Source: Candidatus Heimdallarchaeota archaeon (GTDB taxonomy: Archaea > Asgardarchaeota > Heimdallarchaeia > Heimdallarchaeales > Heimdallarchaeaceae). From it: a DNA stretch of 48,806 nucleotides. This document shows, piece by piece, positions 15,679-38,847 of the stretch. Below the pieces are notes generated by a model. It was not told the origin of the DNA, did no database searches, and saw only the letters and a program-made list of their open reading frames with translations. The position numbers were made by a program, and so were the translations under genes. The stretch lies in assembly GCA_030608385.1 (NCBI GenBank), contig JAUWEG010000003.1, positions 1-48,806 on the forward strand, written 5' to 3'. How positions within the stretch are numbered: position 1 is the stretch's first letter; each line of letters begins with the position of its first letter.

Positions 15679-16098
15679 TTACCGATTTTTGTTTTTAATC
15701 TGCCCTAGAGTGGAATAGATTGTGTCACCTATAATTGTTGATATTAGAGTGGTTTTTGTGTTACCTCTCATGCCAATAGTTTCAAAGAAACCTAAATCTC
15801 TGAGTTTAGTTATATTCCATTTAGCTGTTGAAAAGGAAATATCCAACTTTGTTGAGATTTTTTCTGCTAAACGGTTTAGAGATATTCTTTTTCTTTCTAT
15901 TTGAATATAACTTTCAAAGAAAATTCCTTTTTGTTTATCATTTAATTGATCAAACAAAATGATTAAACTCTGATGAAGTAAATCAAACAAAAATAAGTTA
16001 TCTTTTTCAAGCTTCCTTATCCTCTCTTGAGCAAAGGCGATCCCTTCTTCTGAGTAGTCTAAGCTTTCCAGTTCCGTTGGATTTAACAAAACGTTCAC
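15679..16098 (-). CDS. small winged-helix DNA-binding protein (putative regulator)
   Basis: The C-terminal half reads like an HTH/wHTH (LAEKISTKLDISFSTAKWNITKLRDLGFFETIG). It is divergent from the ATPase/coiled-coil operon. The start is GTG, so its position is uncertain. Confidence 0.45.
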   Translation of the reverse strand: MNVLLNPTELESLDYSEEGIAFAQERIRKLEKDNLFLFDLLHQSLIILFDQLNDKQKGIFFESYIQIERKRISLNRLAEKISTKLDISFSTAKWNITKLRDLGFFETIGMRGNTKTTLISTIIGDTIYSTLGQIKNKNR

Positions 16099-16260
16099 CT
16101 ATCATATTTGCACCTCAGCGTTTGAGTAATACAATATCTAGCATTTACACTTTTAATGTTTTCTACTTACAAGTAAGATATACTTTAAGAATGTATTTCA
16201 ACAGAGTTACTTTTGATAAAAAAATCTATAGTATTAGTGGAGATTATCAACATTCATAGA

Positions 16261-16268
16261 TTTTATAA
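16261..16268 (+). promoter_or_regulatory. archaeal TATA box of the ATPase/coiled-coil operon
   Basis: TTTTATAA lies about 50 nt upstream of the ATG at 16312. It is followed by the SD-like GTGAGGT at 16302..16308. Confidence 0.35.
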
Positions 16269-16311
16269 GATATGGTTAACATAACCAAAATGAAATATAA
16301 CGTGAGGTCAT

Positions 16312-18075
16312 ATGAGTACTCAAGATTCAAACCTTTTCCAACCTTGCAATCCTGACGATTTTTATGGGTTAAGAGACTTTATCAAAGACTTTAGTCAGAT
16401 TAAAGAAAACATGAAGAAAGAAGGAGAAAAAACTAATTCTATACTTCTAGTTGGTGATGAAGGAACAGGAAAAAGTTCTCTTTTAAGAAAATTATTTTCC
16501 TCTATATCTGTAAGGAAAGATATTTTCCATATGTTTGATTTAATACCTGAAGAAAAAGATTTGTTAGGGTTCTTCAAAGAATGGAAAAATATGATTGATG
16601 AGATATCTCCAGATTGGCGTTCAGTTCTTGAAAAAGTAGGAAAAAAGAAATTAGGTGATGATCTTCCTGCCCTCAAGGAGAACATCAAGAAACAAACTTC
16701 CCAGACTTATACTGAGATTTATGTCAATTTGTTTTTCGAGAATCTAGATAAAGTTAATCAAAAGCTACAGGAGACACAAACAACTTTGTATTTCTTTGTA
16801 GATAATATTCATTTATTCAAATTGATGGATATTCAAGAGTTTTACCCAATTTTCTCAACTATAATTAAGGAACTATCTATTCGAGGATACAACATTGTAG
16901 TTATCACAGCTCTAACAAAGCAATATCTTGTTGATTTTGACTATGAAAAGAATTTAACAGACAATTCAAAGATTTTTAGTATAGAACCTCTATCTGTTTC
17001 AGATACTGAGATTTATCTTCGACGAATTGCACCTCAACTTGTAAATAAAGGGATTCTAGAACTTGTTAATAATAGTCAAAGAACTTTCTTTGATCTAAAC
17101 TTAGGTAACTTTTTCATCAAATCTGGATTTGAAATCGATGATTTCGTTGAAAGAAATATTCCTAAGGTCTTTAGTCTTACAGACGAAGAGGAGTCTGTCT
17201 TATCAGAAATGGCCTCATTCAATGAAAATCTTTTCTTGATTGAACAATTAACTGCATATGTTCCACTTGAAGCTATCAAGTCACTTGAAGAAAAAGGATT
17301 TTTGTGGATTGGTTCAACATATGCTCGTTTAGTTCAAGAATCCTTATTAACAGCGATGAAGTTCCGAATGAGATTATTCAGTCCCATTACCTCACTGATG
17401 GTTACACTTGATTCAATTCTAGAGGATTTGAGCAAATACATTTCTCCATCAGATAAGATTATAGAAAAAGTTGGGAGCTTATCGGGTAAAATTAGAGACA
17501 GACTTGCTGATTTTGCAATAGCTTCAAAAATTCAAAAAATCGCTAATATATGTATCGAGAGAAAAATGTATCAAAAGGCATATGATTTAACATTAATCAA
17601 TACTCAACAATTTGAGCAAATTAATGAATTAGAGCAAGCAGGAGCATTCTGCGAAAAAATCGCAAGAGAATTCGAAGAAAAGAACTTCTATTTTGCAGCT
17701 AGACTTTACCTGAAATCTGCTTCTTATTACAAAGCAGTTGAAGAAGAACTTAAAGCAAATAGATCCTATGCAAGAGCTGCAGATCAATTTGAGAAACTAT
17801 CAGTAACACTGCCTGTGGAAAAAAGTGAATACGCTATACGCGGTTACTTGAAATCAAGCCTTGATTGTTATAAGAACATGGGGGACAAAACTAACTTCGA
17901 AAGAATTAGGAAAAAGGCAGTTGAGATGTTTGAAAAGGAAAGCATACATCACAATTATTTTACAAATATGATTTACGGGAGAGAAGAGGAATTACAGATT
18001 CCTTTAGAAGAACCTGAGCCAAAAGAAGTAGAAGAAATTTCTATTGAAAATATTGAAAAAGAATTGGATTTTTAG
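16312..18075 (+). CDS. STAND/ORC-like P-loop NTPase (archaeal ATPase type) with wHTH and C-terminal TPR/alpha-SNAP-like helical repeats
   Basis: It has Walker A LLVGDEGTGKSSLL and a Walker B-like LYFFVDNIHLF. The middle region is wHTH-like (LIEQLTAYVPLEAIKSLEEKGFLWIG). The C-terminus carries paired amphipathic helices (AGAFCEKIA, ARLYLKSASYYKA, YARAADQFEKL, LDCYKNMGD). TTTTATAA at 16261 and GTGAGGT lie ahead of the ATG. Confidence 0.7.
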   Translation: MSTQDSNLFQPCNPDDFYGLRDFIKDFSQIKENMKKEGEKTNSILLVGDEGTGKSSLLRKLFSSISVRKDIFHMFDLIPEEKDLLGFFKEWKNMIDEISPDWRSVLEKVGKKKLGDDLPALKENIKKQTSQTYTEIYVNLFFENLDKVNQKLQETQTTLYFFVDNIHLFKLMDIQEFYPIFSTIIKELSIRGYNIVVITALTKQYLVDFDYEKNLTDNSKIFSIEPLSVSDTEIYLRRIAPQLVNKGILELVNNSQRTFFDLNLGNFFIKSGFEIDDFVERNIPKVFSLTDEEESVLSEMASFNENLFLIEQLTAYVPLEAIKSLEEKGFLWIGSTYARLVQESLLTAMKFRMRLFSPITSLMVTLDSILEDLSKYISPSDKIIEKVGSLSGKIRDRLADFAIASKIQKIANICIERKMYQKAYDLTLINTQQFEQINELEQAGAFCEKIAREFEEKNFYFAARLYLKSASYYKAVEEELKANRSYARAADQFEKLSVTLPVEKSEYAIRGYLKSSLDCYKNMGDKTNFERIRKKAVEMFEKESIHHNYFTNMIYGREEELQIPLEEPEPKEVEEISIENIEKELDF

Positions 18076-18084
18076 GTGAGTAAG

Positions 18085-19533
18085 ATGTCAGAAAGAATAA
18101 CAAAAGATTTAGAAAAAGTGAAAAGAGAAATTGAAAATTTAGATGGAGAGATTGTAAATTTTAAAGAATCTCTAGAAAACTTGAAGGAATTACATCAATT
18201 TTATCAAATTCTAGCAACTTTAGTTCAAAACAAGTTTATTGGTTTGAATGAGAATTTACGCAATTTAATTGACACAAATAGACAGTCATTAGATGATATT
18301 ATTGAAGCAAATGTATCTGAAGATAAAAAACTAATTGATGAATGGACTAAAAGTCAATCAGAATCTGTAGTGTCGAAGCTAGACAATACAAAAAATGAAT
18401 TATCTAAATTACATGAATCTATTGCTTCTATTTTAGATGAAGGAAAAACCAACTTTGTGGAGTATTCTTCCTCATTTGGTGAAAAAATAAGAACCACTCT
18501 TACAAACCACGAACAAGATTTAGAACGATTAGCAAACAATCAAGTTAATGCTTTTAGAAAAGCAATTGATAGTGTAAAAGAAGATGTTAGTACTGTAAAG
18601 GAAAAAAATCTTTCAACCTTCAAGAACAATTCAGACGATATGAGAACAAAGATTGAATCTAACATTAATATTTCTCAAAACATCATGAAAGAATCCATAG
18701 AACATTTAAGATCAGAGTATGGTGATAAATTAACTGAAAACATGGAATCTGTCTTTGAAAGCTTTAATCGAATTAAAAGTGAATTAGGACAGCTTGTCAA
18801 TAACGCAGTTCAAAGAATTCAATCTGAATTATCTGATGTAACCGATTCAATGGATAAGTATCTTGTTGATGAAATTGCAAAAGTACAAGATGTTTTAGCA
18901 GAATACGAAACTGGAATGATTGATGTTAATGAAGTAGCTATGACAAATTTCAATTCATCTAAGGAATCTATGCTAGGATCTTATGATGATTTAACAAATA
19001 ATCAATATAATGAACATGATTCTGAACTTAAAGAATTTGAAGGGGATTTCAATAACAAAGTGGATGCAATTTTATCTACACTCTCTGAACAATCAGATTC
19101 AATTAAACAAGAAATAAAATCCTTTGTGTCAAGAGAACAGGACGATATTAAAAACCATTTAGATGATATTTTAACAACCGTTGTTGAAAAATCTGATAAT
19201 CTTCAAGGTAATGCTGCAAAAACAGCAGCAGAAAGAATATCTATTCTTGAAAATGAAATTACCGATGCAAAAGATTCCTTAGAAAGAACAAGTCTACAAA
19301 TTACCTCAAGATTAGATTCAGCTCAAAAAGATACTATAGCTGAAATTTCAACCATGTCCTCGAATGCAAAAAGCAAGATTGTTGAAACACAAGATTCCAC
19401 TGTAGCTAATCTTGAAATTGAAGCAAAGGACAATATCAAAAAAGCAGAACAAGTAGAAAAGTTGAGAAAAGATCTCATAAGTCGATTAGAAAGACTAGAA
19501 AGGAATCTTGAAACAATAAAAGATCAATTATAA
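18085..19533 (+). CDS. all-alpha coiled-coil protein (482 aa), unknown function
   Basis: The ORF is uninterrupted and its composition is E/K/D/S/N/L/I-rich and helix-forming, with no Cys and almost no Pro or Gly. AGGTGA overlaps the upstream stop and lies 5 nt before the ATG at 18085. Confidence 0.65.
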   Translation: MSERITKDLEKVKREIENLDGEIVNFKESLENLKELHQFYQILATLVQNKFIGLNENLRNLIDTNRQSLDDIIEANVSEDKKLIDEWTKSQSESVVSKLDNTKNELSKLHESIASILDEGKTNFVEYSSSFGEKIRTTLTNHEQDLERLANNQVNAFRKAIDSVKEDVSTVKEKNLSTFKNNSDDMRTKIESNINISQNIMKESIEHLRSEYGDKLTENMESVFESFNRIKSELGQLVNNAVQRIQSELSDVTDSMDKYLVDEIAKVQDVLAEYETGMIDVNEVAMTNFNSSKESMLGSYDDLTNNQYNEHDSELKEFEGDFNNKVDAILSTLSEQSDSIKQEIKSFVSREQDDIKNHLDDILTTVVEKSDNLQGNAAKTAAERISILENEITDAKDSLERTSLQITSRLDSAQKDTIAEISTMSSNAKSKIVETQDSTVANLEIEAKDNIKKAEQVEKLRKDLISRLERLERNLETIKDQL

Positions 19534-19547
19534 AAGAAGTGATTAAA

Positions 19548-22500
19548 ATGGAAGGAACATTAGAAAAGATTGGTTTATCGAAAGATGAAGTTCAAGTTTA
19601 TTCAATAATTGTTCAATTTGGTTATAGAACCATAGGTCAAATCCAAACATATTACAAACAACCCTCAAATGTCATCCAAAATGCTTTAAACAGTTTAGCT
19701 GGCAAAGGATACATTAGAGAAATCAAAGCTAAAAACCAAGAGGGGACCTCATATTTTATTCCACTCCCCCCACAAATTAAGCTTACAGAGGATGTATCTA
19801 TTCGTTTAGAAACTGAATTAAAGTCATTAAGTGATGATGTAAAAGAAGATTGGAATAAAACAATGAATAATTTTAGATTACAATTATCCGCATTTCATGC
19901 AAAAATTACAGAAAATGTTGATGATCATGCTTCTGAAATCGCATCAACTGCTACTAAATTTTTAGATTCATTAACAAACATAGTTTCATCAGGAAAAACT
20001 GAAACAGCAGAAGTGATTGAAAGGCTAAAGTCAGAAACTTCCAATATTTCTGCAACAAACAGTGATGCTATTGCAAAAACTGCTCAAAGAGTAAAAGAGA
20101 ATGTTCTTAGTTCTTTTGATTCTACTATTCACAAAATAGGCGAACATCATGATTCATTCAAAGTAAAAATAGAGGAAAGACTAGGTTTTCTGCAAAAAGA
20201 GCATGATGATAGAACTCAAATACAACTTGATGCCCTTCTTGAAAAAGTCGAAAGGATAAAAGAAAGCTTATCAGTTCAGCTTCAGGAATTTATAGAAGAA
20301 GCAGGAGAACGAAAAAGTGTAATTATAACTGTTACAGATGAAGCTGTTAAGAAAATCTCAGCAGATTCAAGCGTAGTTGCAAGAGATTCTTCTAAGAAGC
20401 TTTCTGATACAGTAAACAAAATTATCGCAAACTATGAGAAAAAGCTTGACGAATATCAAGTAAAAGTACAGCAGATTATAATTTCATTAAATGATGAATT
20501 GAAAAAACTTGAAGACGCAACAACAAACAGAATAAGAACCTCAATTGATAGATCAAAAGAAACAGCAGTAAATATTTTGAGAGGGAATGAGAATCAGTTT
20601 GTTGATTTAATGAATAAAACTAAAGTTGATTCTGTTGAAAAGCTGGGAGATTTAATTACACAAACTGAAGCAAAAACAGAAGAAATGAAAGTTAAATTGA
20701 GTAATGATTTAGCCTCATATCTCAAAGAATTCAAAAAGAATAGCGATAATCTACTATCTTTACTTAATTCAGGAATAGAAATAGGTTTCAATCTGTTTGA
20801 AGAGAATCTGTCTTCTTCAATTGAAAACGTAAGTAACCAAATCAAACTGTTTGTAGAAGACATAATGTCTGCATTTAGAGAATCAACTAACGCGTATTTA
20901 GATAAATTGTCAAAAACAACCACTAAATATGAAAAGGCTTTGAAGGAGAGGAAAGAAAAGTTTGCCACCACACATGAGGAATTTAAAGAAAACTTCACTT
21001 CTCATATCAATGAATTAAAATCCACTGTTATTTCTAATATTGAGAAAAACATTAAGGATAACAATGAAACAATTCAAAATCTAATAACTGAAAAAGAAAA
21101 CAAATTCAAATCTGATGTTGAAGTTTTTTCAGATGAGTTCTCTAAAAGAGGAAGAGATGTTAGAGATGAAGTACCTAATGTTGTTCAGATTAACTACCAA
21201 GCTAGCCTAGAAAGATTACAAGAATTAGATGATCAGCTTAAATCATCAATTGCAAAAATTGAAGTGATTAACCAAGCATTTCAAGGATTAGAGGAGAAAC
21301 AGCTTCAAAAAGTATTTGGAAAAGAAGAGGGACCACGAATGGCTCAACTAATCGGAAGTATGAATAGAGATATTGAGCTAGTAAAGGAGAATGTTGGAAA
21401 TAAAATGGAGGAAATGATTCAAACATTGACAAATTCAATGAATTCTTTGTCCAATGAAATATTTGAAAAGATGAATTTAAGATTAGAAGATTTAGCAAGA
21501 TTCACAACAGATACCCTTCAAAAAACCAGCCAATCATTTGAAATTTCAAGAAGTGAAATTAGTAGCCAATTTACAGCATCTTCAGATGATATGAAAAGAA
21601 CTATTGAAGAAACCTATACAACTTATGAAGAGCAATTTAATGAACTACAAGGAACAAGCACTAAATCATTAGCCGATGTAATAGGAGCTGAATCTAAAGC
21701 ATTTTCTGATGTAACTAAATCCATAAGTGGTTCATTGGATGAACTTCTCCAAGCTCCAGATTCAACTGAAGATAATGAAGGTCAAACAGAAATTCATCTG
21801 ACAATTCAAGACGGTCTAGAAGCTCTGCTAACAACAAAACAAGAAATTCTTGATGTAATGAAGAAAAATAATATCGAGGTAACAACTAATCTTCAAGAAT
21901 TACTTAAGTCAAACATTGACGACCATTCCAAATTAGTAACCAAAGCTACTTCCTCAATGGATGTAACAATGAAATCTTTGCAAAGTGAATTCAAATCTGC
22001 AAAAGAGGCTCTTGATACTGACATTTCTGTCACTCTAGATGAGGCTGCTACAAATTATAGCGCTCAAACAGCAAAGGTTGAAACCGAGATTAATGATTTA
22101 ATTGAGCAAGAAGTTCAACAGTTTATTGAAGGTACTGAAGGTGTATTAGCGGAATTAAATGTTTCCCCTGAGAAATCATCATTGTTAGATGAAGCACTTG
22201 CAAATACTAAGGGAGAGCTTCAAAAGCTTGGTGCAAATTATCCAAAATGGGTTAAAACTGACTCTGATGCATTTGCAACTAAATTGGACTCTTCCATAAA
22301 AGAATTTCAAATAGGTGCACAGACAGAAATTGATACAATGTTTACTAGCGTTCAAAGAGGTCTTGAGAAATCCTATGAACGCTTGGCAACTGACTTTGTT
22401 AATAATGTCACAGAAATTCAAAATGAATTTGAAAAAGAAAAGAATGATTATGAATTAAACATGTCTCATCAAGTTAATAGCTTTATTACTAATTCAGATT

Positions 22501-23321
22501 CAAATTCATCTGCCTTGGTAACTAATATTCAAGGAACAAAAGATGCTCTTATAGAGGCTATAACTTCTGGAGATGATGCAGTCAATGCAGACCTTAGTAA
22601 TCTAGAAAAAACTTTAACCGACCTATTTGATTCAAATTTGACCGCTCTAACAGAAAAATTGAATGCAGCTCAAGAGGATTCAATGATTGTAGATACTGAG
22701 AAAGATGATTACAGCTCTAAACTTATGAGTTTTAAAGAGAATATAATCAAAGGAACTCAACAAGAAATTGAAAATATAGACACTAGTATTTCTGGGACAC
22801 TAAGTTCAATTCCAGATAAAATCGGTGGCGCTTTAGATGCAACAGGGGAATCAATGAAATTAATTAAGAGTGTTTTATCGCTGGGGTCAGGGATTGAACC
22901 AAATCCAATTGAAGATATATGGATAGTAACAGGTAACGAACAAGTTAATGGAACTATGATGTCTCTCTTGAGAAATACAAAGTCTTCTGCTACAATAATT
23001 TGCCCAAGATTAAATTGGATAGATTCTGAATTCCTTGAAACTTTTGCTAGAAAACTAGAAATTGTAACAAATACAACAGCTCATACAGACGAAGATAAAG
23101 CTATCTTAAGTAAAATGCTTGGGATGGGGAATGTAGTTGTAAAGGATGATACAAACCTAACAGTAATGATGGCAACCAGAGATGGTATAGAAGAAGGTTT
23201 CTTAGGGCACAAAGCTCCAAGTGGAGATCCACTTCTAATTGTAACCTTTAATGAAGAAATTGTTGGGGAAATAACTAAAATTTACTACGATTTCAGAAGT
23301 AGGGCCCCTATAAGACAATAA
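19548..23321 (+). CDS. giant TrmB-family protein: N-terminal TrmB wHTH, about 1000-aa coiled-coil rod, TrmB-like C-terminal domain
   Basis: The N-terminus LEKIGLSKDEVQVYSIIVQFGYRTIGQIQ...VIQNALNSLAGKGYIREI matches the TrmB HTH consensus. The C-terminus IWIVTGNEQVNGTMMSLLRNTKSSATIICPRLNWID...VVVKDD resembles the TrmB C-terminal regulator domain. The interior is helical and low in Pro/Gly. The ATG at 19548 is preceded by GTGAT. Confidence 0.7.
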   Translation: MEGTLEKIGLSKDEVQVYSIIVQFGYRTIGQIQTYYKQPSNVIQNALNSLAGKGYIREIKAKNQEGTSYFIPLPPQIKLTEDVSIRLETELKSLSDDVKEDWNKTMNNFRLQLSAFHAKITENVDDHASEIASTATKFLDSLTNIVSSGKTETAEVIERLKSETSNISATNSDAIAKTAQRVKENVLSSFDSTIHKIGEHHDSFKVKIEERLGFLQKEHDDRTQIQLDALLEKVERIKESLSVQLQEFIEEAGERKSVIITVTDEAVKKISADSSVVARDSSKKLSDTVNKIIANYEKKLDEYQVKVQQIIISLNDELKKLEDATTNRIRTSIDRSKETAVNILRGNENQFVDLMNKTKVDSVEKLGDLITQTEAKTEEMKVKLSNDLASYLKEFKKNSDNLLSLLNSGIEIGFNLFEENLSSSIENVSNQIKLFVEDIMSAFRESTNAYLDKLSKTTTKYEKALKERKEKFATTHEEFKENFTSHINELKSTVISNIEKNIKDNNETIQNLITEKENKFKSDVEVFSDEFSKRGRDVRDEVPNVVQINYQASLERLQELDDQLKSSIAKIEVINQAFQGLEEKQLQKVFGKEEGPRMAQLIGSMNRDIELVKENVGNKMEEMIQTLTNSMNSLSNEIFEKMNLRLEDLARFTTDTLQKTSQSFEISRSEISSQFTASSDDMKRTIEETYTTYEEQFNELQGTSTKSLADVIGAESKAFSDVTKSISGSLDELLQAPDSTEDNEGQTEIHLTIQDGLEALLTTKQEILDVMKKNNIEVTTNLQELLKSNIDDHSKLVTKATSSMDVTMKSLQSEFKSAKEALDTDISVTLDEAATNYSAQTAKVETEINDLIEQEVQQFIEGTEGVLAELNVSPEKSSLLDEALANTKGELQKLGANYPKWVKTDSDAFATKLDSSIKEFQIGAQTEIDTMFTSVQRGLEKSYERLATDFVNNVTEIQNEFEKEKNDYELNMSHQVNSFITNSDSNSSALVTNIQGTKDALIEAITSGDDAVNADLSNLEKTLTDLFDSNLTALTEKLNAAQEDSMIVDTEKDDYSSKLMSFKENIIKGTQQEIENIDTSISGTLSSIPDKIGGALDATGESMKLIKSVLSLGSGIEPNPIEDIWIVTGNEQVNGTMMSLLRNTKSSATIICPRLNWIDSEFLETFARKLEIVTNTTAHTDEDKAILSKMLGMGNVVVKDDTNLTVMMATRDGIEEGFLGHKAPSGDPLLIVTFNEEIVGEITKIYYDFRSRAPIRQ

Positions 23322-23345
23322 TCTCCCTTTTTCTCCCTTTTTATT
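23322..23345 (+). terminator. oligo-T terminator, duplicated TCCCTTTTT unit
   Basis: TCTCCCTTTTTCTCCCTTTTTATTT begins immediately after the TAA at 23319..23321. Archaeal RNAP terminates at oligo-T tracts. Confidence 0.4.
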
Positions 23346-23426: not shown

Positions 23427-23792
23427 ATGTGGATAATGCAACCCTGTCCAATGCATAGAGAGATTGAATATACTACTTATTGTATTCTTGAAGATGAGCT
23501 TGAAATGATTTTATTAGTCTCTTTTTATGATCCAGATGATCTTCTTACTGCAGATTTGGAAGAGTTTGCTAACCCTACATTTTGTTTAAACGCTGTGGTT
23601 TTGGACGATGAAAATGTAATTTATTGTCCAACTAAAAAGAAAAGAATAGAGCTCAGAGGTAGATCAATACCTCAAAAAGTCTATGAAAACACAAGAGAAA
23701 CTCTACTGTTCATGGATCCTGATGCTAAAGAATGCTCAGATTGTTTATACAAAGCCTTAGTTGCTTTGATAAAAAGTCTAGAAGAGATGTAG
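23427..23792 (+). CDS. hypothetical small acidic Cys-containing protein
   Basis: Support comes only from the ORF and from its non-overlapping fit between neighbouring genes. No motif is recognised. Confidence 0.35.
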   Translation: MWIMQPCPMHREIEYTTYCILEDELEMILLVSFYDPDDLLTADLEEFANPTFCLNAVVLDDENVIYCPTKKKRIELRGRSIPQKVYENTRETLLFMDPDAKECSDCLYKALVALIKSLEEM

Positions 23793-29972: not shown

Positions 29973-32900
29973 TTACTCCTTTGTTTCCCCTTCTTCCACT
30001 GTCTCTGAAACAGCTTCATTATTTTCTTTTGAATCAATCTCCGATCTAAGGATTTTTCTTACTTTTTCAGTTTCTAGATAACTGTCTGAAATTTTTTGAG
30101 TAATCACTTCTATTTTCTTAGCTTCCTCGATTATAATTGTTGAATGTAAGGTTTCAGAAAGTTCAGCATAACCTATTACTCCCATTAGAGGATTTCTAAT
30201 TCTATCTACCAGTTCAGCGAAATCCTCAATATTTTGAGCAATTTGGTCATAAGCTTGCCTTCGTAGCTCCCTATCACGTTTTCTATCAGTGATATCTCTT
30301 GCTGTTACTAACATTGTTAATTCTTCTTTTAGAGTAAAGGGTGTTGCAGTGATTTCAACTGGGAAAGTTGTTCCATCTTTTCGAATAAATTCTCGTTCAA
30401 ATCTAATGATATATTTTTCCATCATTTCAGCGAAATAATCCATTATCTCTTCCTCCGTTAAATCCTTAACAAGGTCTACAAGACTCAAACCAATTAGTTC
30501 CTCTCTTTTATATTTGGTCATTACTAATGCTGGATCATTTGCTTCTACAATATTACCGATAGAACCATCTCGTGGTATACTCAGAATTGCAATAATATCA
30601 TTTGCTTCATGGAAAAGCTTACGATATCTTTCCTCACTTTCCATTAATTCTCGCTCTGCATTTTTTCGCTCAGTGATATCTCTAGATACCGATAGAACAA
30701 CCATTTCACCTCTTAACTCAAAAACATGAGAACTAATTTCAGTAGGAATTCTTTTTCTATCTTTAGATATTAAGGTATTTTCAAAAGTTGTTATTCCTTC
30801 CTTTATAATTTGATGAATATTTTCAGAAAGTACATCTCTGTCTTCAGGAGCTGTAATTTCAGAGGATTTCATTTTCAAAAGTTCAGCTCTTTCATATCCC
30901 AATAGTGTGCAAGCTACGTCATTAACCTCTATGAATGTACTAGTACTATTTCTTTCTTCATCGACATTTGTCAAGAAAATAGCATCATTTGTATTATTGA
31001 AAATTTGTCTATATTGTTCTTCTCTCTCTATAAGTTCTTCTTCAGCTTTTTTGCGGTCAGTTATATCCCTGACAATTCCCTGAACAACCTCTATTCCTCC
31101 TATTTCAAACCTACTAGAAGATACATCTGCTGGGAAGACTGAACCGTCTTTTCTTCGGAATCTGGTTTCAAAATTAACAGAACCTTTTTCCTCTATTGTA
31201 TCAAATGCTTTCTTAGATGTTTCCTGCTCAGTAATTGGGTGCAATTGCATTATGGTTAATTGAAGAAATTCTGATTTTGAATAACCGAAGAGCTCTTTAA
31301 CCCGTAGATTGACATCCAAAATATTTCCTCTTAAATCATGTAGGAATATTCCATCATTTGATTGATCAAAAGTTTGTCTGAATTTTTCTTCACTTTCTTT
31401 TAGTGCTGATTCAGCTTTCATTCTTTCCTCAATATCTCCAATAACAGCCATTATTTCAGAAGGATTTCCTTCCTCATCTGTAGTTAGAGAAGCACTTAGT
31501 TCTATTGGAAATTTGCTTCCATCTCTCTTTAGTGACATAAATTGAGTATTTTGTAATCGTCCTTCAGTTAAAACTAGTTTTAGTTGACTATTTGCAAATT
31601 CTAGATTCTCTCTAGCAATAAAATCAACAGTTGTCAAACCAATCATATCTTTTATATCATCATATTCATACATATTTGCAGTCTGTTGATTGGCAAAAGA
31701 AACTCGTCCATCTAGATCAATCAGAATAATAGCGTCAGGAGAGGTTTCAATAAGTGTTCTATATCTTTCTTCACTCTTCCTAATAGAAAGTTCAGCTATC
31801 TTTTGTTCGGTTATATCTCTAGCTACAGAAAGCAATACTTGTTGATCTCTCAGTGTAAAGAGATGGGAGCTTAATTCCACTGGTCGCAATTCACCTTTTT
31901 TATTTTCTATTTGCGTTTCAAAAGTTTTTGTTCCTGCTGCGAATAGATCTGCTGTAATTTCCAACGAAAATTGAAGATTACTAAAATTACTATTTGCATC
32001 AATTGAATGTTTGAGAAGTTCTTCTCGAGAGTATCCCAACCACTGACAAGCTGTTTCATTCACTTCTAACATGTCCCCAATTTCGTCATATTCATTTATT
32101 TTGTGAATGAAAATTGCATCTTTTGCATTTTGGAATATTTGTCTAAATTTTTGTTCACTTTCTTTAAGAGCTTCTTCTGCTTTTTTCCTTTCAGTAATGT
32201 CGATTTCAACACCTATAAAACCAAAAACGCTTCCTTCTTTATCTTTTATAGCTGCTGCATGAAACACCCCTGGGATGGTTGTTTCGTCTTTTCTTAAAAT
32301 TGAAACTTCAATATCATGAATGAATCCATCTTCTATGGTTCTTCTTTGAACATCTTGAGCTGTAAAAGTATCCTCATAGGCAATTAGTTCATTAGTATTC
32401 TTTCCAAGTAATTGATCTTCGTTCTCATAACCATGAAGAATAGCTGCTCTTTTATTGACAAATGTCACTCTACCAGATGAATCTGAACGTATAATTGCTG
32501 CGGGAATTGTTTCAACTAATTTTCTGTATTTTTCCTCACTTTCCATTAAGTCTCTTTGGGCTTTTTTCCTTTCAGTAATATCCCTTGCTATTGAAAGTAT
32601 TACTTTTTGAGATTGTAATTCGAAGATGTGTGAATTAATTTCAACTGGTATCCGTTTTCTATCCTTAGAAAATAGAATAGTCTCAAAAGTCAAATGACCT
32701 GTATCCACAATCTTCTTTGTATACTCAGAATTGTAATCTATCTCTTCAGGAGCTGTAATATCACTAGAAAACTTATTAAGCAATTCTTCTTTAGAAAAAC
32801 CTAACCATCGTAATGCTACATTATTTGCTTCAATAAATTTACTTGAAGAACCATTTTCTCTTAGGTAAGTTAAGAAGATAGCATCACTTGAATTATGGAA

Positions 32901-34433
32901 TATCTGTCTAAACCTTTCTTCACTACTAGTAATCTCCGCCTCTGCTTTTCTTCTCTCTCTTAAATCTCTAGCTGTTGTTAAAACAACTTTTTCATTGTTC
33001 ATTAAGAAGATATTTGAGTTATATTCAACTGGAATCTTACTACCGTCTTTGTGAATTATGTACCCTTCGAATGTAACTCTACTTTTTTCTAATAGATTTT
33101 TACCGATTTCTGATTGTCCAACAGTTTCTTCTGGGGTATGTAAATCAACTGGTGTCATTTGAAGAAGTTCTTCTCTTGAAAATCCAGTCCATTCACATGC
33201 TATATAATTTACTTCTATAAACTTCCCCATCACGTTATCAGCTGTTAAGGGTGACATGAAAATAGCTTCATCTACATTCTGGACTATTTGTCTGAACTTT
33301 TCTTCACTTTCTATCAATTCATCTTGTTCTTCTTTCCTTTCGGTGATATCTCTTACAACAGCTAAACTAACTAAGTCATCACCAAGAGTGAATAAGTGAG
33401 AATTAATTTCCACAATTATCACCCTTCCATCTTTAGTTTTATGCATTCTCTCAAAAGTAAGTTCTTTTTTCTCCATTAACTCCTGTACAAATTCTAAACT
33501 TTCCTTTTCTCCTGTAACAATGAAGTCAGATGGTTTCATCTTCATGAATTCTTCTCTAGTGTAACCATACATGGCAGCTGCTACACTGTTAGTTTCAATG
33601 ATCTCTTCAAATGTTCCATCATCTCCTCTTCTACTGACGAAGATACCATCATTTGTATTATGAAAAATCTGTTTAAATCTTTCTTCACTTTCTTGAAGTT
33701 CTTTGGATGTTTGTTTACTTTCTGTAATATCACTAGCTAATTCTGCTACTCCAATTAAATTCCCGTCATCTCCATAAACAGGGTATCCTCGAACAAACCA
33801 GGTTTTATGATCTGGAGTTATTACTTCTGCAATATGCTCTTGTCCTGAATCTCTTGCTTTAATGACAGGGCAATTGTCACATGGTTGGTCTCTTTGATAC
33901 CATAGTTCATAACATGTTTCTCCAACAATATCCTCCGGAGATTGACCCAATAGATCACTTGCAATTTTATTAGACCAAATTATTTTCATGTCTGTATCAT
34001 AGAAAATTATATGTTCAGTCAGAAAATCTAAGAATTTTGATTTTTTGAACTCAGAAGCCATAACTTTGGTTTCTTTTTGTTTATCCCCTGTTATGTCATT
34101 AGTAATAATAAAAAGTTTGTTTAATTTTTCTCCCTCTATAATAGGATAAAAGCGATTACGTATGAACTTTCTAGTTCCATCCTTTGTTGCAATCCAAAAT
34201 TCGATTTCTTTTGGGTAAGTATTCATTTTATCATTTTCAGATTTAATTAATTTCAATCTGTTTTTCTCTTCTGTTGCAGCAAGAAAAATAAAGTTTTTTC
34301 CTTGTATCTCTTTTAATGAATATCCTGTTATTTGTAACAAATAATCGTTTGCAAATTCGATTTTTCTATTTTTTACTATAGTTACTCCTACATCGATTTT
34401 ATCGAATATCTCCCCTAAGTCTTCTTCTGCCAT
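29973..34433 (-). CDS. multi-PAS sensor protein (11 PAS domains) ending in a His-less DHp-like segment, no HATPase domain
   Basis: Eleven PAS modules are delimited by a repeated linker, DITERKKAE..L.ESEE+FRQIF. The C-terminus is AELVDRIRNPLMGVIGYAEL. The ORF-track start at 34481 is TTG; the ATG at 34433 (MAEEDLGEIF) is preceded by GTGA. Confidence 0.85.
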   Translation of the reverse strand: MAEEDLGEIFDKIDVGVTIVKNRKIEFANDYLLQITGYSLKEIQGKNFIFLAATEEKNRLKLIKSENDKMNTYPKEIEFWIATKDGTRKFIRNRFYPIIEGEKLNKLFIITNDITGDKQKETKVMASEFKKSKFLDFLTEHIIFYDTDMKIIWSNKIASDLLGQSPEDIVGETCYELWYQRDQPCDNCPVIKARDSGQEHIAEVITPDHKTWFVRGYPVYGDDGNLIGVAELASDITESKQTSKELQESEERFKQIFHNTNDGIFVSRRGDDGTFEEIIETNSVAAAMYGYTREEFMKMKPSDFIVTGEKESLEFVQELMEKKELTFERMHKTKDGRVIIVEINSHLFTLGDDLVSLAVVRDITERKEEQDELIESEEKFRQIVQNVDEAIFMSPLTADNVMGKFIEVNYIACEWTGFSREELLQMTPVDLHTPEETVGQSEIGKNLLEKSRVTFEGYIIHKDGSKIPVEYNSNIFLMNNEKVVLTTARDLRERRKAEAEITSSEERFRQIFHNSSDAIFLTYLRENGSSSKFIEANNVALRWLGFSKEELLNKFSSDITAPEEIDYNSEYTKKIVDTGHLTFETILFSKDRKRIPVEINSHIFELQSQKVILSIARDITERKKAQRDLMESEEKYRKLVETIPAAIIRSDSSGRVTFVNKRAAILHGYENEDQLLGKNTNELIAYEDTFTAQDVQRRTIEDGFIHDIEVSILRKDETTIPGVFHAAAIKDKEGSVFGFIGVEIDITERKKAEEALKESEQKFRQIFQNAKDAIFIHKINEYDEIGDMLEVNETACQWLGYSREELLKHSIDANSNFSNLQFSLEITADLFAAGTKTFETQIENKKGELRPVELSSHLFTLRDQQVLLSVARDITEQKIAELSIRKSEERYRTLIETSPDAIILIDLDGRVSFANQQTANMYEYDDIKDMIGLTTVDFIARENLEFANSQLKLVLTEGRLQNTQFMSLKRDGSKFPIELSASLTTDEEGNPSEIMAVIGDIEERMKAESALKESEEKFRQTFDQSNDGIFLHDLRGNILDVNLRVKELFGYSKSEFLQLTIMQLHPITEQETSKKAFDTIEEKGSVNFETRFRRKDGSVFPADVSSSRFEIGGIEVVQGIVRDITDRKKAEEELIEREEQYRQIFNNTNDAIFLTNVDEERNSTSTFIEVNDVACTLLGYERAELLKMKSSEITAPEDRDVLSENIHQIIKEGITTFENTLISKDRKRIPTEISSHVFELRGEMVVLSVSRDITERKNAERELMESEERYRKLFHEANDIIAILSIPRDGSIGNIVEANDPALVMTKYKREELIGLSLVDLVKDLTEEEIMDYFAEMMEKYIIRFEREFIRKDGTTFPVEITATPFTLKEELTMLVTARDITDRKRDRELRRQAYDQIAQNIEDFAELVDRIRNPLMGVIGYAELSETLHSTIIIEEAKKIEVITQKISDSYLETEKVRKILRSEIDSKENNEAVSETVEEGETKE

Positions 34434-34569
34434 CTGATTCACTCGAATAGATTTTTTACCCCAGATTGAGAACCAAGCCAATATTATGGTTGCTCTCTTG
34501 ATATATTTATTAAAATAATTTTAATAAGATTGTGATGGTTCTAGTCAAAATTTTAACGAGAAAAATCCA

Positions 34570-35694
34570 CTAAAATACTCTCTTGTTGTCTCCAGTAAAA
34601 GTGTAGAGGGATTCAGAGTGTAGAAGAACCGATAGTTTCTGACTTATTGTGAATTTCTTCTTAGTTTTGGTGACAAAGAATAAGTTTTCTCCTTTATAAT
34701 TCAGAGTTAAAACTTGTTGATCAAGTATTTTTTCTGAATCAGTAATAGAACATTCCAGTACTATTTGATTTTCATCAACAGTTTTGTTTGGATCTAGTTC
34801 TCTGATTGACTCTGCTCTAAATCCTATTTCACCTTCTGTGATATTTTCTTTTAGAATTCTTTTTTGAAGATTTTTAGGAAGTAAAATCTGTTTGTCAATA
34901 ACTAATGAGACTGAATTTTTTGAGGACTTGAATTTGAGAAAATTCATTGGGAAGTTGCCAATAAATTGTGCTACAAACTTCTGATTAGGTTCATCATAAA
35001 GATCTTCAGGAGGGCCCATTTGAGCAATTTCTCCATCTTGTAATAAAATGATAGTATCTCCGAGGCTGAGAGCTTCAGATTGATCATGTGTCACATAAAC
35101 CATTGTTGTCTTCAGAATTCCATGAAGTTTTCGAATCCATGTTCTCATCTCATATCTTAATCTTGCATCAATATTGCTTAGTGGTTCATCAAAGAGAAAA
35201 ATTACTGGCTTTCTAATTACTTCTCTACCTATAGCTACTCTTTGCTGTTCCCCCCCACTTAGTTGAGAAGGATACTTGTTTCTATGTTCCTCCAATTTAA
35301 ACAACTTTAGTGTTTCATCCACTTTATCTTGTACGTCTGATGATGAGAAAGTTCTTCTTTTAAACAAATTTCCTTCTTTTTGACTCTCCAATGGAAAACG
35401 CAAATTTTCTTCTACAGTCATATGTGGAAAAAGAGGATAGTTTTGAAAAACCATTGCTATGTTTCTTTTATTTGCAGGTATGTTTGTTATGTTTTTTTCA
35501 TTAAAAAATATTTGACCTTCTGAAGGATATAATAATCCTGCTAGAATTCTCAATAATGTGGTTTTTCCACTTCCTGAAGGTCCGAGGATAACAGTGAAAC
35601 TTCCTTCAGGAATTGTGATATTAATATCATTGAGAGCTGTTTTTTTGCCATATTTTTTTGTTAGATTTTTTATTTCAACTTTCATTTCATACAT
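34570..35694 (-). CDS. ABC importer ATP-binding subunit, MalK/UgpC type
   Basis: It has Walker A GPSGSGKTT, Q-loop, signature LSGGEQQRV, Walker B IFLFDEPLS, H-loop VTHDQ and a C-terminal regulatory (TOBE-like) domain. It overlaps or abuts the permease gene stop. Confidence 0.92.
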   Translation of the reverse strand: MYEMKVEIKNLTKKYGKKTALNDINITIPEGSFTVILGPSGSGKTTLLRILAGLLYPSEGQIFFNEKNITNIPANKRNIAMVFQNYPLFPHMTVEENLRFPLESQKEGNLFKRRTFSSSDVQDKVDETLKLFKLEEHRNKYPSQLSGGEQQRVAIGREVIRKPVIFLFDEPLSNIDARLRYEMRTWIRKLHGILKTTMVYVTHDQSEALSLGDTIILLQDGEIAQMGPPEDLYDEPNQKFVAQFIGNFPMNFLKFKSSKNSVSLVIDKQILLPKNLQKRILKENITEGEIGFRAESIRELDPNKTVDENQIVLECSITDSEKILDQQVLTLNYKGENLFFVTKTKKKFTISQKLSVLLHSESLYTFTGDNKRVF

Positions 35695-38600
35695 CTCTTA
35701 TATTTACTGAATTATCAATTCCTTTAAGCAGATAATTTCTTAGAAATACGAAAACCAAAAGCAAAGGAATTGTTACTAATATTGATGCAGCCGCAAATAA
35801 TCCCCATTCAGGAGAACTAGATTCAATAGACCCCAGAAAAGTGTATAGTTTGATGGGGAGAGTGTATTTTCCTGGTGACTGTAATAATACAAATGCCATC
35901 AGAAAACCATTCCATGTACTCAAGAAATTTAACAAGAATGTAATAGCTATCGCTGGTCCTGATAGTGGTAAAATGATTTTTCGAAGTACTCTAAATCGCG
36001 AATTTCCCATAACCATAGCAGATTCATCTAATTCCTTCGGAATTGAATCAATATACCCTTTTATTATCCATAATGCTAGTGGTATGGTGTGCGTGCTAAA
36101 GGCTAAAATTGCACCAATGTATGTGTCTATTAATCCTAAATTAAACATGATAAGATAAAATGGTATTAGTGTAAGGATGCCTGTGAACATTTTTAAAGCA
36201 AAAACACCAACCATCATCTCCTTCTTAGCTTTAATTGTGTATCTTGAAAATCCATAAGCTGCTAAAGCTGTTAAAATGACGCAAATACTTGCTGATCCTA
36301 ATGCAATGAGTAGCGAATTAGCAAAGTTCAAGTGAATACTTTCTTGAGTAAATAATCTTCTAAAATTATCTAAAGTAGGATTCTCCGGGAAAAACGAGGT
36401 TGGTACAGAACTATTGCCCCTCGAGAAAGCTATCCATATTATGTTCCAAAATGGAATAAGTGCCACAGCTGTAACTAGGAATAGGAAGAAAATGCTGTTT
36501 TTTGGTTTGGTTGCAATTTCATACGTTTTTGATAGGAGCTTGTTCTGTTTGAAATTAAACTGTGTGTGAATTCTAAGATAATTTAGAATAAACGTGAATG
36601 ATAATAAACTGATAGTTGTAACCCAACCTACTAGATTCCAACTTATAATTATTCCCGTCCAAAGTATTGGCTGCAATAGTATAGATAGTTTCACAAAGAA
36701 GTCTGAGACAAAACTAGCTAGTAAATAAATACCCAATAGTGCTAGAATAGTCCAAGGAAGCCAATTAGTCAATTTCAGCAGGATATTGGCCGTTAAGATA
36801 GTAGTAAACTGAATTAACAGTATGCCGTGAATTGAATTCAAATTAACTATTCTAGAATCAAGCTTTTGAAGAAAAATCCTAACACTTCTTTTTATTTGTT
36901 TGAACCAGATTATTATTTTTTCTCTTGGTTTGAATTCTACTTCTTCTGAATCATTTTTTCTTATATTTGAAACTATAAAAAACTCTAGAACAATAATGAA
37001 GATATTCCAATTCAAAGCATACCACATCTGATAGAAAAAGAATTGTGATAATGAAAGGGTTATATCTGCAATAAGCAACACTTTGAACCATTTGATTGAA
37101 ATGTTCTTTTTTGAAAGTATCAAAATTGCTGATATTAGATAGAAACCCGCAAGGACATAACTTAGTGCATCATTCCAATAAATACCAAAATATCTGAATC
37201 CCGTTAAACTTGAAGCTAAATACCCTGCTGATTGGAATAGGAAAAGAATGGGTAAAACATATTTATTGGTTGAAGTTTTTTTCTGACTAGATGGTATGTA
37301 AGAACTTTTTGTACCCTTTGACATCTTCACCCATATCAAAACAAAAAACAATGTCAGAAGACTCATGATTGTAGAGTATGCAGCTGCTATTCCAATCTCT
37401 CTTTGTTGATAGAACATATAAAATGTAAACGTGCTAAAGAGATCCGTGGCGCCTATGATTCCAGCTTCGTTTGACCCGTATGATAGAAGTGGATATCCGT
37501 TTGTTAGTAAAAATGCTACATTAAAGCTACCAAAAGTTTTGATAATTTCCAATATTATTGCTGGGAGAATAATAGGTTTGATTAAAGGGATTACGATTTT
37601 TCTTATTTTAGTTCTTTCCCGAATCTGATCAATATCCGCCATATCATTTAATTCTCTGGGAATACTGCTCAAACCTGCTAGAAATAATGTTGTTATCAGG
37701 GGAATTGAATCCCAAACCTCTACAAAGCATGCTATGAATAAAGCTACATAAGGTTGTGTCAAAAGATTCACATTCGTTCCAAATAGTGCATTAAAAAAGG
37801 ATATACTACCTGTACCGTGGAAGAATGTTCTCCAAGATAAGATTTTGATGTATGATGGGATTGCCCAAGGTAGATATAAGAACAAGTACCATAATTTCTT
37901 CCTTTTTACCTTATATTGAATAATATATGCTAAGATAAAACCTAGAACTATTTTTACAAAAATAATTAAGGTACTCCAAACTAAAGTAGTTGTGAAAGCT
38001 ATTGGAAGTTGAGGATTTTCAGTAATATGAGCATAATTACTGAATCCGGTAAAAACAGGTTGTTCTCCTCTTACAAGGTTGTAAGAGGTAAAAGATAGAA
38101 ATATGCCATATAAAATTGGATAAACTTCCAATAAAACGAGAGCCAATAAAGCTGGGAAGATGAATATATATGCAGTTTTATTGAACGGAACATCCCTCCT
38201 TGCAAAAAAGATGAAGATTGCAACAAATAAAATGACAATAACTAGTAGTGATAGAGAAGTAGCCAACTTTGAGTAGTGTAATTGATCCTCCTGACTTTGG
38301 AGAGTCTCAATTTGTTCTGATTCCCAATGAAGTTCTTCACTCACTTGTTGAATGATTTGCATTTCTGCATAATCTACGAAAGTTGCATTAACGAGATATA
38401 TTGAGAATTGGTATAATTGCGATGGTAAAAGTCCTGTAATTCTTGCATGAATCGCATCTGATTCATTACTAACAATGTAGACTGTGAAGTTAAAAGTAAT
38501 CCTCTTTTGTGCAAGAAAATTTGAGTCAGATATAGTATAATTCACTGGAGAGAAATAGTTTTCTTCTCTTTCTACACTTTGATTAAGAAAAATAAAAGAC

Positions 38601-38842: not shown

Positions 38843-38847
38843 TAAGC

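Follow-up and report, generated by a model that had tools for sequence, protein, structure and literature searches.

A stretch of 48,806 nucleotides from Candidatus Heimdallarchaeota archaeon (NCBI GenBank assembly GCA_030608385.1, contig JAUWEG010000003.1, positions 1 to 48,806 of the forward strand; the window below) carries three tightly packed, co-oriented genes, g1, g2 and g3 (Table 1), and the question was what kind of system they encode. Among known prokaryotes the Asgard archaea are the nearest relatives of eukaryotes, and little is known of the way in which they arrange and move their DNA. A first-pass annotation had read the genes as an operon of a P-loop ATPase and two giant coiled-coil proteins, one with a DNA-binding TrmB head, and had proposed a nucleotide-switched, DNA-anchored tether. 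It was found that g1, g2 and g3 form one conserved unit, the triad. The protein g3 resembled the Thermococcales chromatin protein TrmBL2 with a giant insert, which is predicted to fold back on itself. The tether proposal thus appeared right in outline and gained better grounds, although it is still a proposal.

The order g1-g2-g3 was observed in every Heimdallarchaeaceae locus long enough to show the triad, and the ATPases encoded by g1 were 47-97% identical within the Heimdall homologues. Because the whole neighbourhood is conserved among close Heimdall genomes, synteny there was regarded as weak evidence, and weight was placed on divergent lineages with unrelated neighbours. The synteny check suggested by the first-pass annotation for related, especially Asgard, genomes was passed strongly, since the triad recurred in unrelated neighbourhoods (L036-L039 and L041, Table 1). 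A profile search with the broad ATPase alignment reached Heimdallarchaeia only, owing to the word-index limit of the search. In Helarchaeota (L040, 8103-13372) a dyad was found, in which a degenerate ATPase was directly followed by a 1123-aa rod with no g2 between them. A profile of the C-terminal domain of g3 gathered 106 cluster representatives, most of which measure 670-1830 aa and end in this domain, and a hidden Markov model (HMM) of the TrmB-type head matched 93 of 107 long proteins, a set that included cluster members and locus-derived proteins. All named sources of the g3 relatives were Asgard (Heimdall, Hod, Kari, Prometh, Hel, Thor and Frey). The triad appears to be a self-contained, vertically inherited Asgard operon for a machine of three proteins, and its conservation from Heimdallarchaeia to Promethearchaeota and Freyrarchaeum indicates that it is probably ancient within these archaea.

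Stand-alone short paralogues of g3 were also observed in Thorarchaeota (L042 8001-10145, 714 aa) and in L043 (8001-10292, 763 aa). Both followed the same plan of head, hendecad rod and C-terminal domain, with no adjacent ATPase or g2, and a 669-672-aa short form was labelled Kariarchaeaceae. As such paralogues of ~670-770 aa lack g1 and g2, the rod-TrmB family is wider than the triad.

The first-pass annotation had described g3 as a rod that begins with a TrmB winged helix-turn-helix (wHTH). The head was confirmed, as PF01978 scored above its threshold; the residues G25, R27, T28, G30, Q31 and Y35 were invariant, and the conserved helix directly after the wHTH was retained. A second globular domain at the C-terminus, of the phospholipase D (PLD)-like fold, had been missed together with the fold-back of the rod. 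Sequence searches of this domain against Pfam and PDB gave no match, and it was resolved by fold comparison alone. Foldseek, which had been proposed for models of all three proteins, was applied to the AlphaFold2 (AF2) models of g1 and of g3 residues 1040-1257. The globular part of the g3 model had a predicted local distance difference test score (pLDDT) of 77-92, and its best structural match was TrmBL2 (5bpd/5bqt, eight chains, E 4e-9 to 2e-7), with NucT (6ehi, a PLD-fold nuclease), the TrmB effector domain (2f5t, E 2e-5) and further PLD-superfamily members among the others. Neither the HxK...D (HKD) motif nor an invariant His was found in the domain, which is therefore non-catalytic, like that of TrmB proteins.

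In TrmB and in TrmBL2 alike, a wHTH is followed by a dimerisation helix and then by a C-terminal domain; TrmBL2 coats DNA as a tetrameric chromatin protein (PMC4877046). The same domain order was present in g3, and given the second globular domain besides the wHTH, g3 may be viewed as a complete protein of the TrmBL2 type into which a very long segment is inserted. Like TrmBL2, g3 is without a sugar-binding subdomain. It differs in that a predicted hendecad hairpin arm of ~1040 residues with a conserved apex stands in place of the single short, amphipathic dimerisation helix, in its size (1257 versus ~260 aa), in sharing its operon with the genes of a STAND ATPase and of another rod, and in that the similarity of its C-terminal domain to TrmB and TrmBL2 is undetectable at the sequence level. 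By analogy with TrmBL2, the head probably binds DNA as a dimer or tetramer, and the conserved residues of the recognition helix likewise point to DNA binding.

The presence of both TrmB-family domains would also suit an exotic transcription factor, in which g3 is a TrmB-family regulator whose arm serves for sensing or oligomerisation, g1 and g2 tune its activity, and the operon controls a regulon. Most TrmB proteins are reported to be regulators (PMC4158304), and the stand-alone paralogues of 670-770 aa without g1 or g2 fit such a role. However, the nearest structural relative, TrmBL2, is the non-specific chromatin member of the family, with the same lack of a sugar-binding subdomain as g3, and an arm of 65-100 nm whose two-strand symmetry is kept across phyla is hard to explain as a ligand sensor. 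This explanation was considered clearly improbable.

The architecture of the arm was deduced from its sequence. A conserved apex element separates the rod into an N-arm and a C-arm (Table 1), and an HMM of the apex placed it mid-rod in 38 proteins. Its residues R539 and P543 were invariant, and an [RK]-x-x-[VIA]-P motif was present near the rod midpoint in the Loki, Hod and Hel homologues of g3. The N-arm/C-arm lengths were 468/524 residues in the 1257-aa form of the window, 574/632 in a 1471-aa form, 552/613 in L032, 574/643 in P0022, 450/505 in L036 and 570/625 in L037. Across 23 distinct, phylogenetically related proteins with N-arms of 356-550 residues, which make up ~8-9 independent length classes, the two lengths covaried with an r of 0.989 and a slope of 1.03, and the C-arm exceeded the N-arm by 76 ± 8 residues at HMM-defined boundaries. 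The 1719-aa Promethearchaeota g3 (675/736) was in line with this relation.

Further, the length classes of g3 were found to be set apart by insertions that come in pairs, always at the same two sites at comparable distances from the apex: residue ~445 of the window g3 in the N-arm (~90-100 residues before the apex) and ~715-744 in the C-arm (~110-135 residues after it). The paired inserts measured 106/104, 84/87, 106/114 and 102/97 residues (N/C). The helical length of the N-arm (~472 residues) equalled that of the summed helical segments of the C-arm (~474). From three independent observations, namely the mid-rod apex, the covariation of arm lengths and the paired mirror indels, we infer that the insert is an antiparallel hairpin, with the topology of SMC/Rad50 and without ABC heads. 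Such a hairpin would place the wHTH next to the PLD-like domain at one end, the arrangement found in TrmBL2. With ~450 residues per strand at ~0.15 nm per residue, the arm is estimated to be ~65-70 nm long, and up to ~100 nm in the longest homologues.

The likeness to SMC, Rad50 and MukB lies in a predicted intramolecular antiparallel arm that joins N- and C-terminal globular parts, in a conserved apex, in arm lengths kept matched through paired indels, which is a signature known from SMC/Rad50 arms, and in a rod that goes with DNA and an ATPase. In contrast, neither a P-loop nor an ABC signature is present in g3, which begins with a wHTH and ends with a PLD-like domain, and the ATPase of the system is another protein, the STAND/Orc-like g1. 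The apex has neither a hinge domain nor a CxxC zinc hook (a single Cys is present in the whole of g3), no kleisin accompanies it, the repeat is hendecad instead of heptad, and no homology is detectable. The earlier statement that the triad is devoid of SMC/Rad50 ABC heads, nuclease or other effector domains and transmembrane segments was borne out.

Both g2 and g3 had been called giant coiled coils. Their non-heptad repeat and the symmetry of the fold-back had been missed. The hydrophobic periodicity of both rods was very sharp at 3.66-3.68 residues, which corresponds to 11/3, with core positions a, d/e and h (~3/11 positions hydrophobic). The phase was unchanged over residues ~34-440 of g2 and ~78-550 of g3 (~43 hendecads in the N-arm), and it shifted in g3 at ~551-584, ~727-738, ~860-870 and ~1035-1046. 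No proline was present in g2, and in g3 none lay between residues 76 and 542. The 11/3 periodicity recurred in all Asgard lineages examined, and the rod composition was near-identical (26-30% LIVMFWY, ~30% S/T/N/Q and a net charge of -5 to -8 per 100 residues). The rods are thus predicted to be hendecad (11/3) helices and not canonical heptad coiled coils. Unbroken hendecad helices of 400-770 residues are remarkable for coiled-coil structural biology, whatever their function.

The archaeal peripheral stalks (E-G) of A/V-type rotary ATPases are reported to be likewise two-helix hendecad (11/3) rods (PMC6131620 and PMC3293630), and a weak ATP-synt_B Pfam match was recorded for the triad rods. 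The stalks are parallel heterodimers of ~100 residues, whereas the triad rods are predicted to fold back, measure 185-675 residues per arm and have no stator context.

The best Pfam matches of both rods were Apolipoprotein A1/A4/E (PF01442) and ApoLp-III. At 72.5 bits for g3 and 41.4 bits for g2 the PF01442 score remained below the threshold of 90, which was exceeded in distant homologues (L036, 103; L037, 100; P0122, 133 bits). The matches of the rods to Apolipoprotein, ApoLp-III, ATP-synt_B and ZorA tails can all be accounted for by the 11/3 periodicity and were treated as a resemblance and not as homology.

An 11/3 periodicity is a hallmark of lipid-surface helices, and the same matches may be taken to mean that the triad tethers DNA to a membrane or a lipid body, the 11-mer helices of g2 and g3 lying on lipid like exchangeable apolipoproteins or perilipins, with the head holding DNA and g1 regulating the loading. 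In L039, L040 and L041 the triad has small GTPase, longin and Roadblock genes close by, which would agree with it, although such neighbours are common in Asgard genomes and inconsistently present. The exchangeable apolipoproteins (PF01442, ApoLp-III) share the 11-residue amphipathic periodicity, but the triad rods have a narrow hydrophobic seam, no Pro-punctuated 22-mer, DNA-binding-type ends and paired strands, and are intracellular and archaeal. The rods are also strongly acidic, and the arm covariation with paired indels argues for helix-helix packing. We regard such a DNA-lipid tether as distinctly unlikely, and the apolipoprotein resemblance is most likely a convergent periodicity.

The second rod, g2, has no globular domain, and its organisation was centre-symmetric. 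A central motif of 60 residues lies at its exact midpoint (Table 1), and the N/C flanks were 209/213 residues in the window, 206/213 in L032, 185/187 in L036, 185/182 in L037, 326/331 in L038, 323/333 in L041 and 348/362 in L039. Among 16 Heimdall homologues, with identities down to 35%, no internal indel occurred, and the protein was most conserved at its centre (residues 200-290). The equal flanks around the central motif suggest that g2 either folds into a hairpin or dimerises in antiparallel fashion around a central dyad. Two further ideas about g2 were dropped. Zipping along the whole g3 arm was rejected because g2 stays 482 aa alongside both the 1257-aa and the 1471-aa forms of g3, while the g3 arms change by ~106 residues. 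Homology between the g2 centre and the g3 apex had no support, as the apex HMM gave high-bias repeat matches only against g2.

The protein g1 had been annotated as a P-loop NTPase with wHTH and helical repeats, in which the later evidence concurred. Its score against Pfam AAA_16 was 35.7 bits (threshold, 32.6), and the AF2 model (pLDDT 87, predicted TM-score 0.80) comprised a P-loop nucleotide-binding domain (NBD), a helical lid, a winged helix, an all-helical repeat domain and a disordered acidic linker. The top Foldseek matches were the archaeal Walker ATPase 2qen, Orc1/Cdc6, SAMD9, NLRP9 and Avs4, and AVAST5 and plant NLRs were among the others. Judging by the model, g1 belongs to the STAND/Orc-like switch class and is not an unfoldase; the winged helix is supported by the whole-model match to Orc1/Cdc6 and STAND NTPases, which carry one after the NBD. 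Walker A was conserved across Asgard lineages and Walker B followed hhhhD[DN], apart from the Helarchaeota copy, in which both are degenerate (GIGRKS; ...ISNLAE). No effector domain was detected in g1 by Pfam or in the AF2 model, and ~35 residues precede the P-loop/NBD. The C-terminal tail of g1 was conserved in Heimdallarchaeaceae homologues (K583, E584 and L585 invariant and F587 near-invariant in a 15-homologue alignment) and was absent from the other Asgard lineages.

For the C-terminal domain of g1, SNAP (PF14938, threshold 25 bits) was the best Pfam match in 5 of 7 lineages. The Helarchaeota copy, despite its degenerate Walker motifs, scored highest (L040, 28.1 bits), followed by Freyrarchaeum (L039, 21.3), Promethearchaeota (L038, 19.4), Ca. 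Heimdallarchaeum (L032, 18.7) and the window (13.3). Additionally, a PDB profile search with g1 gave a weak Sec17/alpha-SNAP match (E 0.095). As in alpha-SNAP/Sec17-NSF, a putative SNAP-like tetratricopeptide repeat (TPR) domain and a P-loop ATPase are encoded beside long helical-bundle proteins. In g1, however, one chain joins the SNAP-like domain to a STAND/Orc-type switch NTPase with no paired hexameric unfoldase, no SNARE motifs are present, and binding of the rods by g1 is hypothetical.

With MalT, Apaf-1/NLR and Avs proteins g1 shares the NBD, helical domain, winged helix and C-terminal helical-repeat sensor. It differs from these STAND NTPases in having no N-terminal effector domain and in its inheritance as a single-copy, housekeeping-like gene whose operon also encodes rods. 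MalT and similar STAND proteins are transcription activators, a point that speaks for the regulator explanation considered above.

The likeness of the g1 fold to Avs4, AVAST5 and NLRs also raised the possibility of defence against viruses and mobile genetic elements by a STAND sensor NTPase with coiled-coil partners, comparable to Avs, Lamassu or CoCoNuT-type systems. The PADLOC matches and the relation of the g3 PLD-fold domain to the NucT nuclease could be read in the same way. The PADLOC matches were nevertheless limited to coiled-coil tails (ZorA and LmuB) and a P-loop (mad8), with no full-length match, and the PADLOC/NCBIfam matches to ZorA and LmuB were rejected as compositional. No MotA or nuclease motifs were found in the triad, and the g3 domain is without the catalytic residues of PLD enzymes sought above. 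No genome was seen with a second locus among the 33 distinct loci of the genome scan, the neighbourhood in Heimdallarchaeaceae is stable and of housekeeping type, and the conservation across Asgard phyla is just the reverse of what defence genes show, which occur patchily and in islands. No viral-contig relatives of the g3 C-terminal domain were found. Given this vertical, single-copy inheritance in a housekeeping context and the missing effector, a defence role was judged very unlikely.

It was proposed that the triad forms a nucleotide-gated, DNA-anchored architectural or tethering complex for the nucleoid, an interpretation to which we give slightly less than an even chance. The g3 head would sit on DNA as a dimer or tetramer, like TrmBL2, and the acidic arm would point away from the DNA, so that its apex is held ~70 nm off. 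The ATPase g1 would act as a nucleotide-dependent switch that oligomerises when nucleotide-bound and engages the g2/g3 rods or apices; its SNAP-like domain could grip the helical bundles of g2 and/or g3 as alpha-SNAP grips SNARE bundles. Gated assembly of the rods might then create bridges between DNA segments or from DNA to another cellular structure. The topology would be analogous to SMC/Rad50 with the ATPase supplied in trans, and the contacts among g1, g2 and g3 are presumed.

Several observations weigh against this proposal. The acidic rods have matches to the Apolipoprotein model, above threshold in distant homologues, so they may instead act at a lipid or other surface. The arm covariation was derived from related sequences. 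STAND NTPases and long coiled coils are typical of defence systems as well, and the SNAP similarity of the window g1 is sub-threshold (13.3 bits versus 25).

A bolder version would make the triad an Asgard-wide chromatin anchor, with a TrmBL2-like head and a 65-100 nm arm, in which the apex, g2 and the SNAP-domain STAND ATPase couple the nucleoid to membrane, cytoskeleton or a second DNA under nucleotide control. It would be a prokaryotic precursor or counterpart, in function, of the long rods that tether chromatin in eukaryotes, such as the lamina/LINC, kinetochore rods or synaptonemal transverse filaments. This version seemed unlikely.

If DNA is indeed tethered or bridged by the triad, the long-arm principle of chromosome organisation would have been invented independently in the lineage that gave rise to eukaryotes. 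The operon joins a chromatin-type DNA-binding head, an SMC-like fold-back arm made of different parts and a switch ATPase with a SNAP-like domain. The proposal lends itself to direct testing, as the proteins are soluble and Asgard strains are in culture, and it makes concrete predictions, namely rods of 65-100 nm, N- and C-terminal domains juxtaposed head to head and ATP-dependent assembly. The view of the first-pass annotation that no described system has this combination was upheld, since profile searches placed the triad in no characterised system. No description of the operon or of giant Asgard TrmB-type rod proteins was found in the full-text literature, the coverage of which is incomplete, so that an earlier description is possible. 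The triad was rated as categorically new in its combination and architecture, while its parts are known folds.

Table 1. Features of the triad locus (window coordinates) and sizes of the triad proteins in divergent lineages.
Feature	Position	Strand	Remarks
g0, divergent small wHTH gene, 139 aa	15679-16098	-	Weak HTH_24 and TK0271-family matches only
Promoter block ACATTCATAGATTTTATAAG	16250-16269	+	Contains TATA string TTTTATAA at 16261-16268
Shine-Dalgarno GTGAGGT, 5' of g1 ATG	16302-16308	+	GTGAGG kept in the same 8 loci as the promoter block
g1, STAND/Orc-Cdc6-like NTPase, 587 aa	16312-18075	+	Order: NBD, helical lid, wHTH, SNAP/TPR-like helical domain, acidic tail
g1 Walker A GDEGTGKSS, residues 48-56	16453-16479	+	GxxGTGKSS invariant in 15 aligned homologues
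g1 Walker B LYFFVDN, residues 159-165	16786-16806	+	D164-N165 in Heimdall lineage of window, D-D elsewhere
g1 winged-helix domain, residues ~291-345	17182-17346	+	Secondary structure of AF2 model
g1 C-terminal all-helical SNAP/TPR-like domain, residues ~360-555	17389-17976	+	Pfam SNAP PF14938
g1 conserved C-terminal tail ISIENIEKELDF (EKELDF)	18037-18072	+	After disordered acidic linker; pLDDT <50
g2, proline-free rod, 482 aa	18085-19533	+	Predicted hendecad helix over residues ~34-440; no globular domain
g2 central motif, residues 210-269 (60 residues)	18712-18891	+	Exact midpoint; in all 7 Asgard lineages tested
g3, TrmBL2-like rod protein, 1257 aa	19548-23321	+	
g3 N-terminal TrmB-type wHTH, residues 1-75	19548-19772	+	PF01978 34.6 bits (threshold 25.6), residues 5-72
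g3 N-arm, residues 78-530	19779-21137	+	Continuous hendecad helix (predicted), constant phase
g3 apex element, residues 531-608 (...RDEVPNVVQINYQ...FGKEEGPRMA...)	21138-21371	+	Conserved, mid-rod, ~78 residues
g3 C-arm, residues 609-1116	21372-22895	+	Hendecad helix in ~4 phase-shifted segments (predicted); putative antiparallel pairing with N-arm
g3 C-terminal globular PLD-like domain, residues 1117-1257	22896-23318	+	AF2 model and Foldseek
Duplicated CTCCCTTTTT oligo-T tract, directly 3' of g3 stop	23322-23345	+	Putative archaeal terminator, read from sequence
L036, divergent Heimdall-labelled metagenome-assembled genome (MAG)			g1/g2/g3 560/432/1241 aa; ATPase 22-24% identical
L037, unclassified archaeal MAG, same divergent clade as L036			g1/g2/g3 560/427/1462 aa; ATPase 22-24% identical
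L038, Promethearchaeota			g1/g2/g3 575/717/1719 aa
L039, Freyrarchaeum			g1/g2/g3 572/770/1812 aa
L041, Hodarchaeales-type			g1/g2/g3 561/716/1413 aa

The signals around the genes were examined in the AT-rich window (~33% GC). The close packing reported by the first-pass annotation was verified, with 9 nt between the stop of g1 (TAG 18073-18075) and the ATG of g2 at 18085, and 14 nt between the stop of g2 (TAA 19531-19533) and the ATG of g3 at 19548. The longest forms of the g2 and g3 open reading frames (ORFs) begin at GTG 18076 and GTG 19539, respectively; the ATG starts were preferred because they agree with the conserved N-termini of the homologues (MSE... and ME.TLEK...). A GGTGA or GTGAT, put forward earlier as the Shine-Dalgarno sequences of g2 and g3, does precede each ATG inside its gap. 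The TATA box assigned to 16261 proved to lie inside the block ACATTCATAGATTTTATAAG, which was kept in 8 loci with ATPase identities of only 62-97%. As this block and the Shine-Dalgarno sequence of g1 are conserved while the flanking intergenic DNA has diverged, they form a phylogenetic footprint beyond chance. The duplicated oligo-T tract after the g3 stop was present as described. A scan for sigma-70 promoters and intrinsic terminators was discarded, being irrelevant to an archaeon and at chance level in its result.

The triad of the window is flanked by housekeeping genes, with DnaJ, DUF61 and two M24 peptidases upstream and glyceraldehyde-3-phosphate dehydrogenase and an aminotransferase downstream. 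The divergent small wHTH gene named by the first-pass annotation (g0) exists, and its wHTH matches are weak. It adjoins the triad in Heimdallarchaeaceae loci at 45-98% identity, is absent from L003/L029 and L032-L037, and no counterpart was identified beside the triad in other Asgard phyla. Hence, g0 is a lineage-specific accessory neighbour outside the conserved core. Immediately downstream of the oligo-T tract, a 121-aa Cys-containing ORF (23427-23792, +) without a Pfam match has its counterpart at the corresponding place of most Heimdall loci (41-98% identity) and not in divergent lineages, which makes it another lineage-specific neighbour.

Other neighbours were recorded in the divergent loci. 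Close to the triad or dyad, small GTPases (Arf/Ras-like, with one longin-like match) were encoded, as were several Roadblock/LC7 proteins, in the Freyr (L039 3188-5323), Hel (L040 5316-7184 and 13441-14349) and Hod (L041 2145-2732) loci, a proximity that could be due to chance, as these families are abundant in Asgard genomes, or to a functional link. Upstream of the divergent triads (L036 2181-8830 and L037 467-5474) a co-oriented set of DUF58/VWA, CARDB-domain and HEAT-repeat genes was observed, a MoxR/Bat-like cluster that is absent from the window locus.

Two versions of the C-terminal PLD-like domain were noticed among the close g3 homologues P0009, P0010, P0013 and P0015 (63-68% identity overall), one reading ...ATIISPxLxWID...KLEIVTN... 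and the other ...VTLITPDLDWVD...RKRLHFFF..., which suggests domain replacement or recombination within the g3 family.

Elsewhere in the window two very large ORFs were present, one of 1502 aa (29973-34481, -), whose counterpart is a PAS-repeat protein judging by the gene tables of L001 and L002, and one of 1054 aa (35687-38851, -). Finally, a match to the Rfam family PYLIS_3, the pyrrolysine insertion element of mttB, was recorded at 48520-48619 (-) with 38.7 bits versus a threshold of 38. It lies inside an ORF at 48116-48727 (-) that encodes the C-terminal part of an MttB-family protein (Pfam MTTB, E 8e-31) and runs off the window end. A pyrrolysine site was rejected there, as the frame reads ...HAYLGMSDTK... 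with no in-frame TAG. The ORF is probably a non-pyrrolysine MttB homologue, and the RNA match would reflect conservation of the coding sequence.

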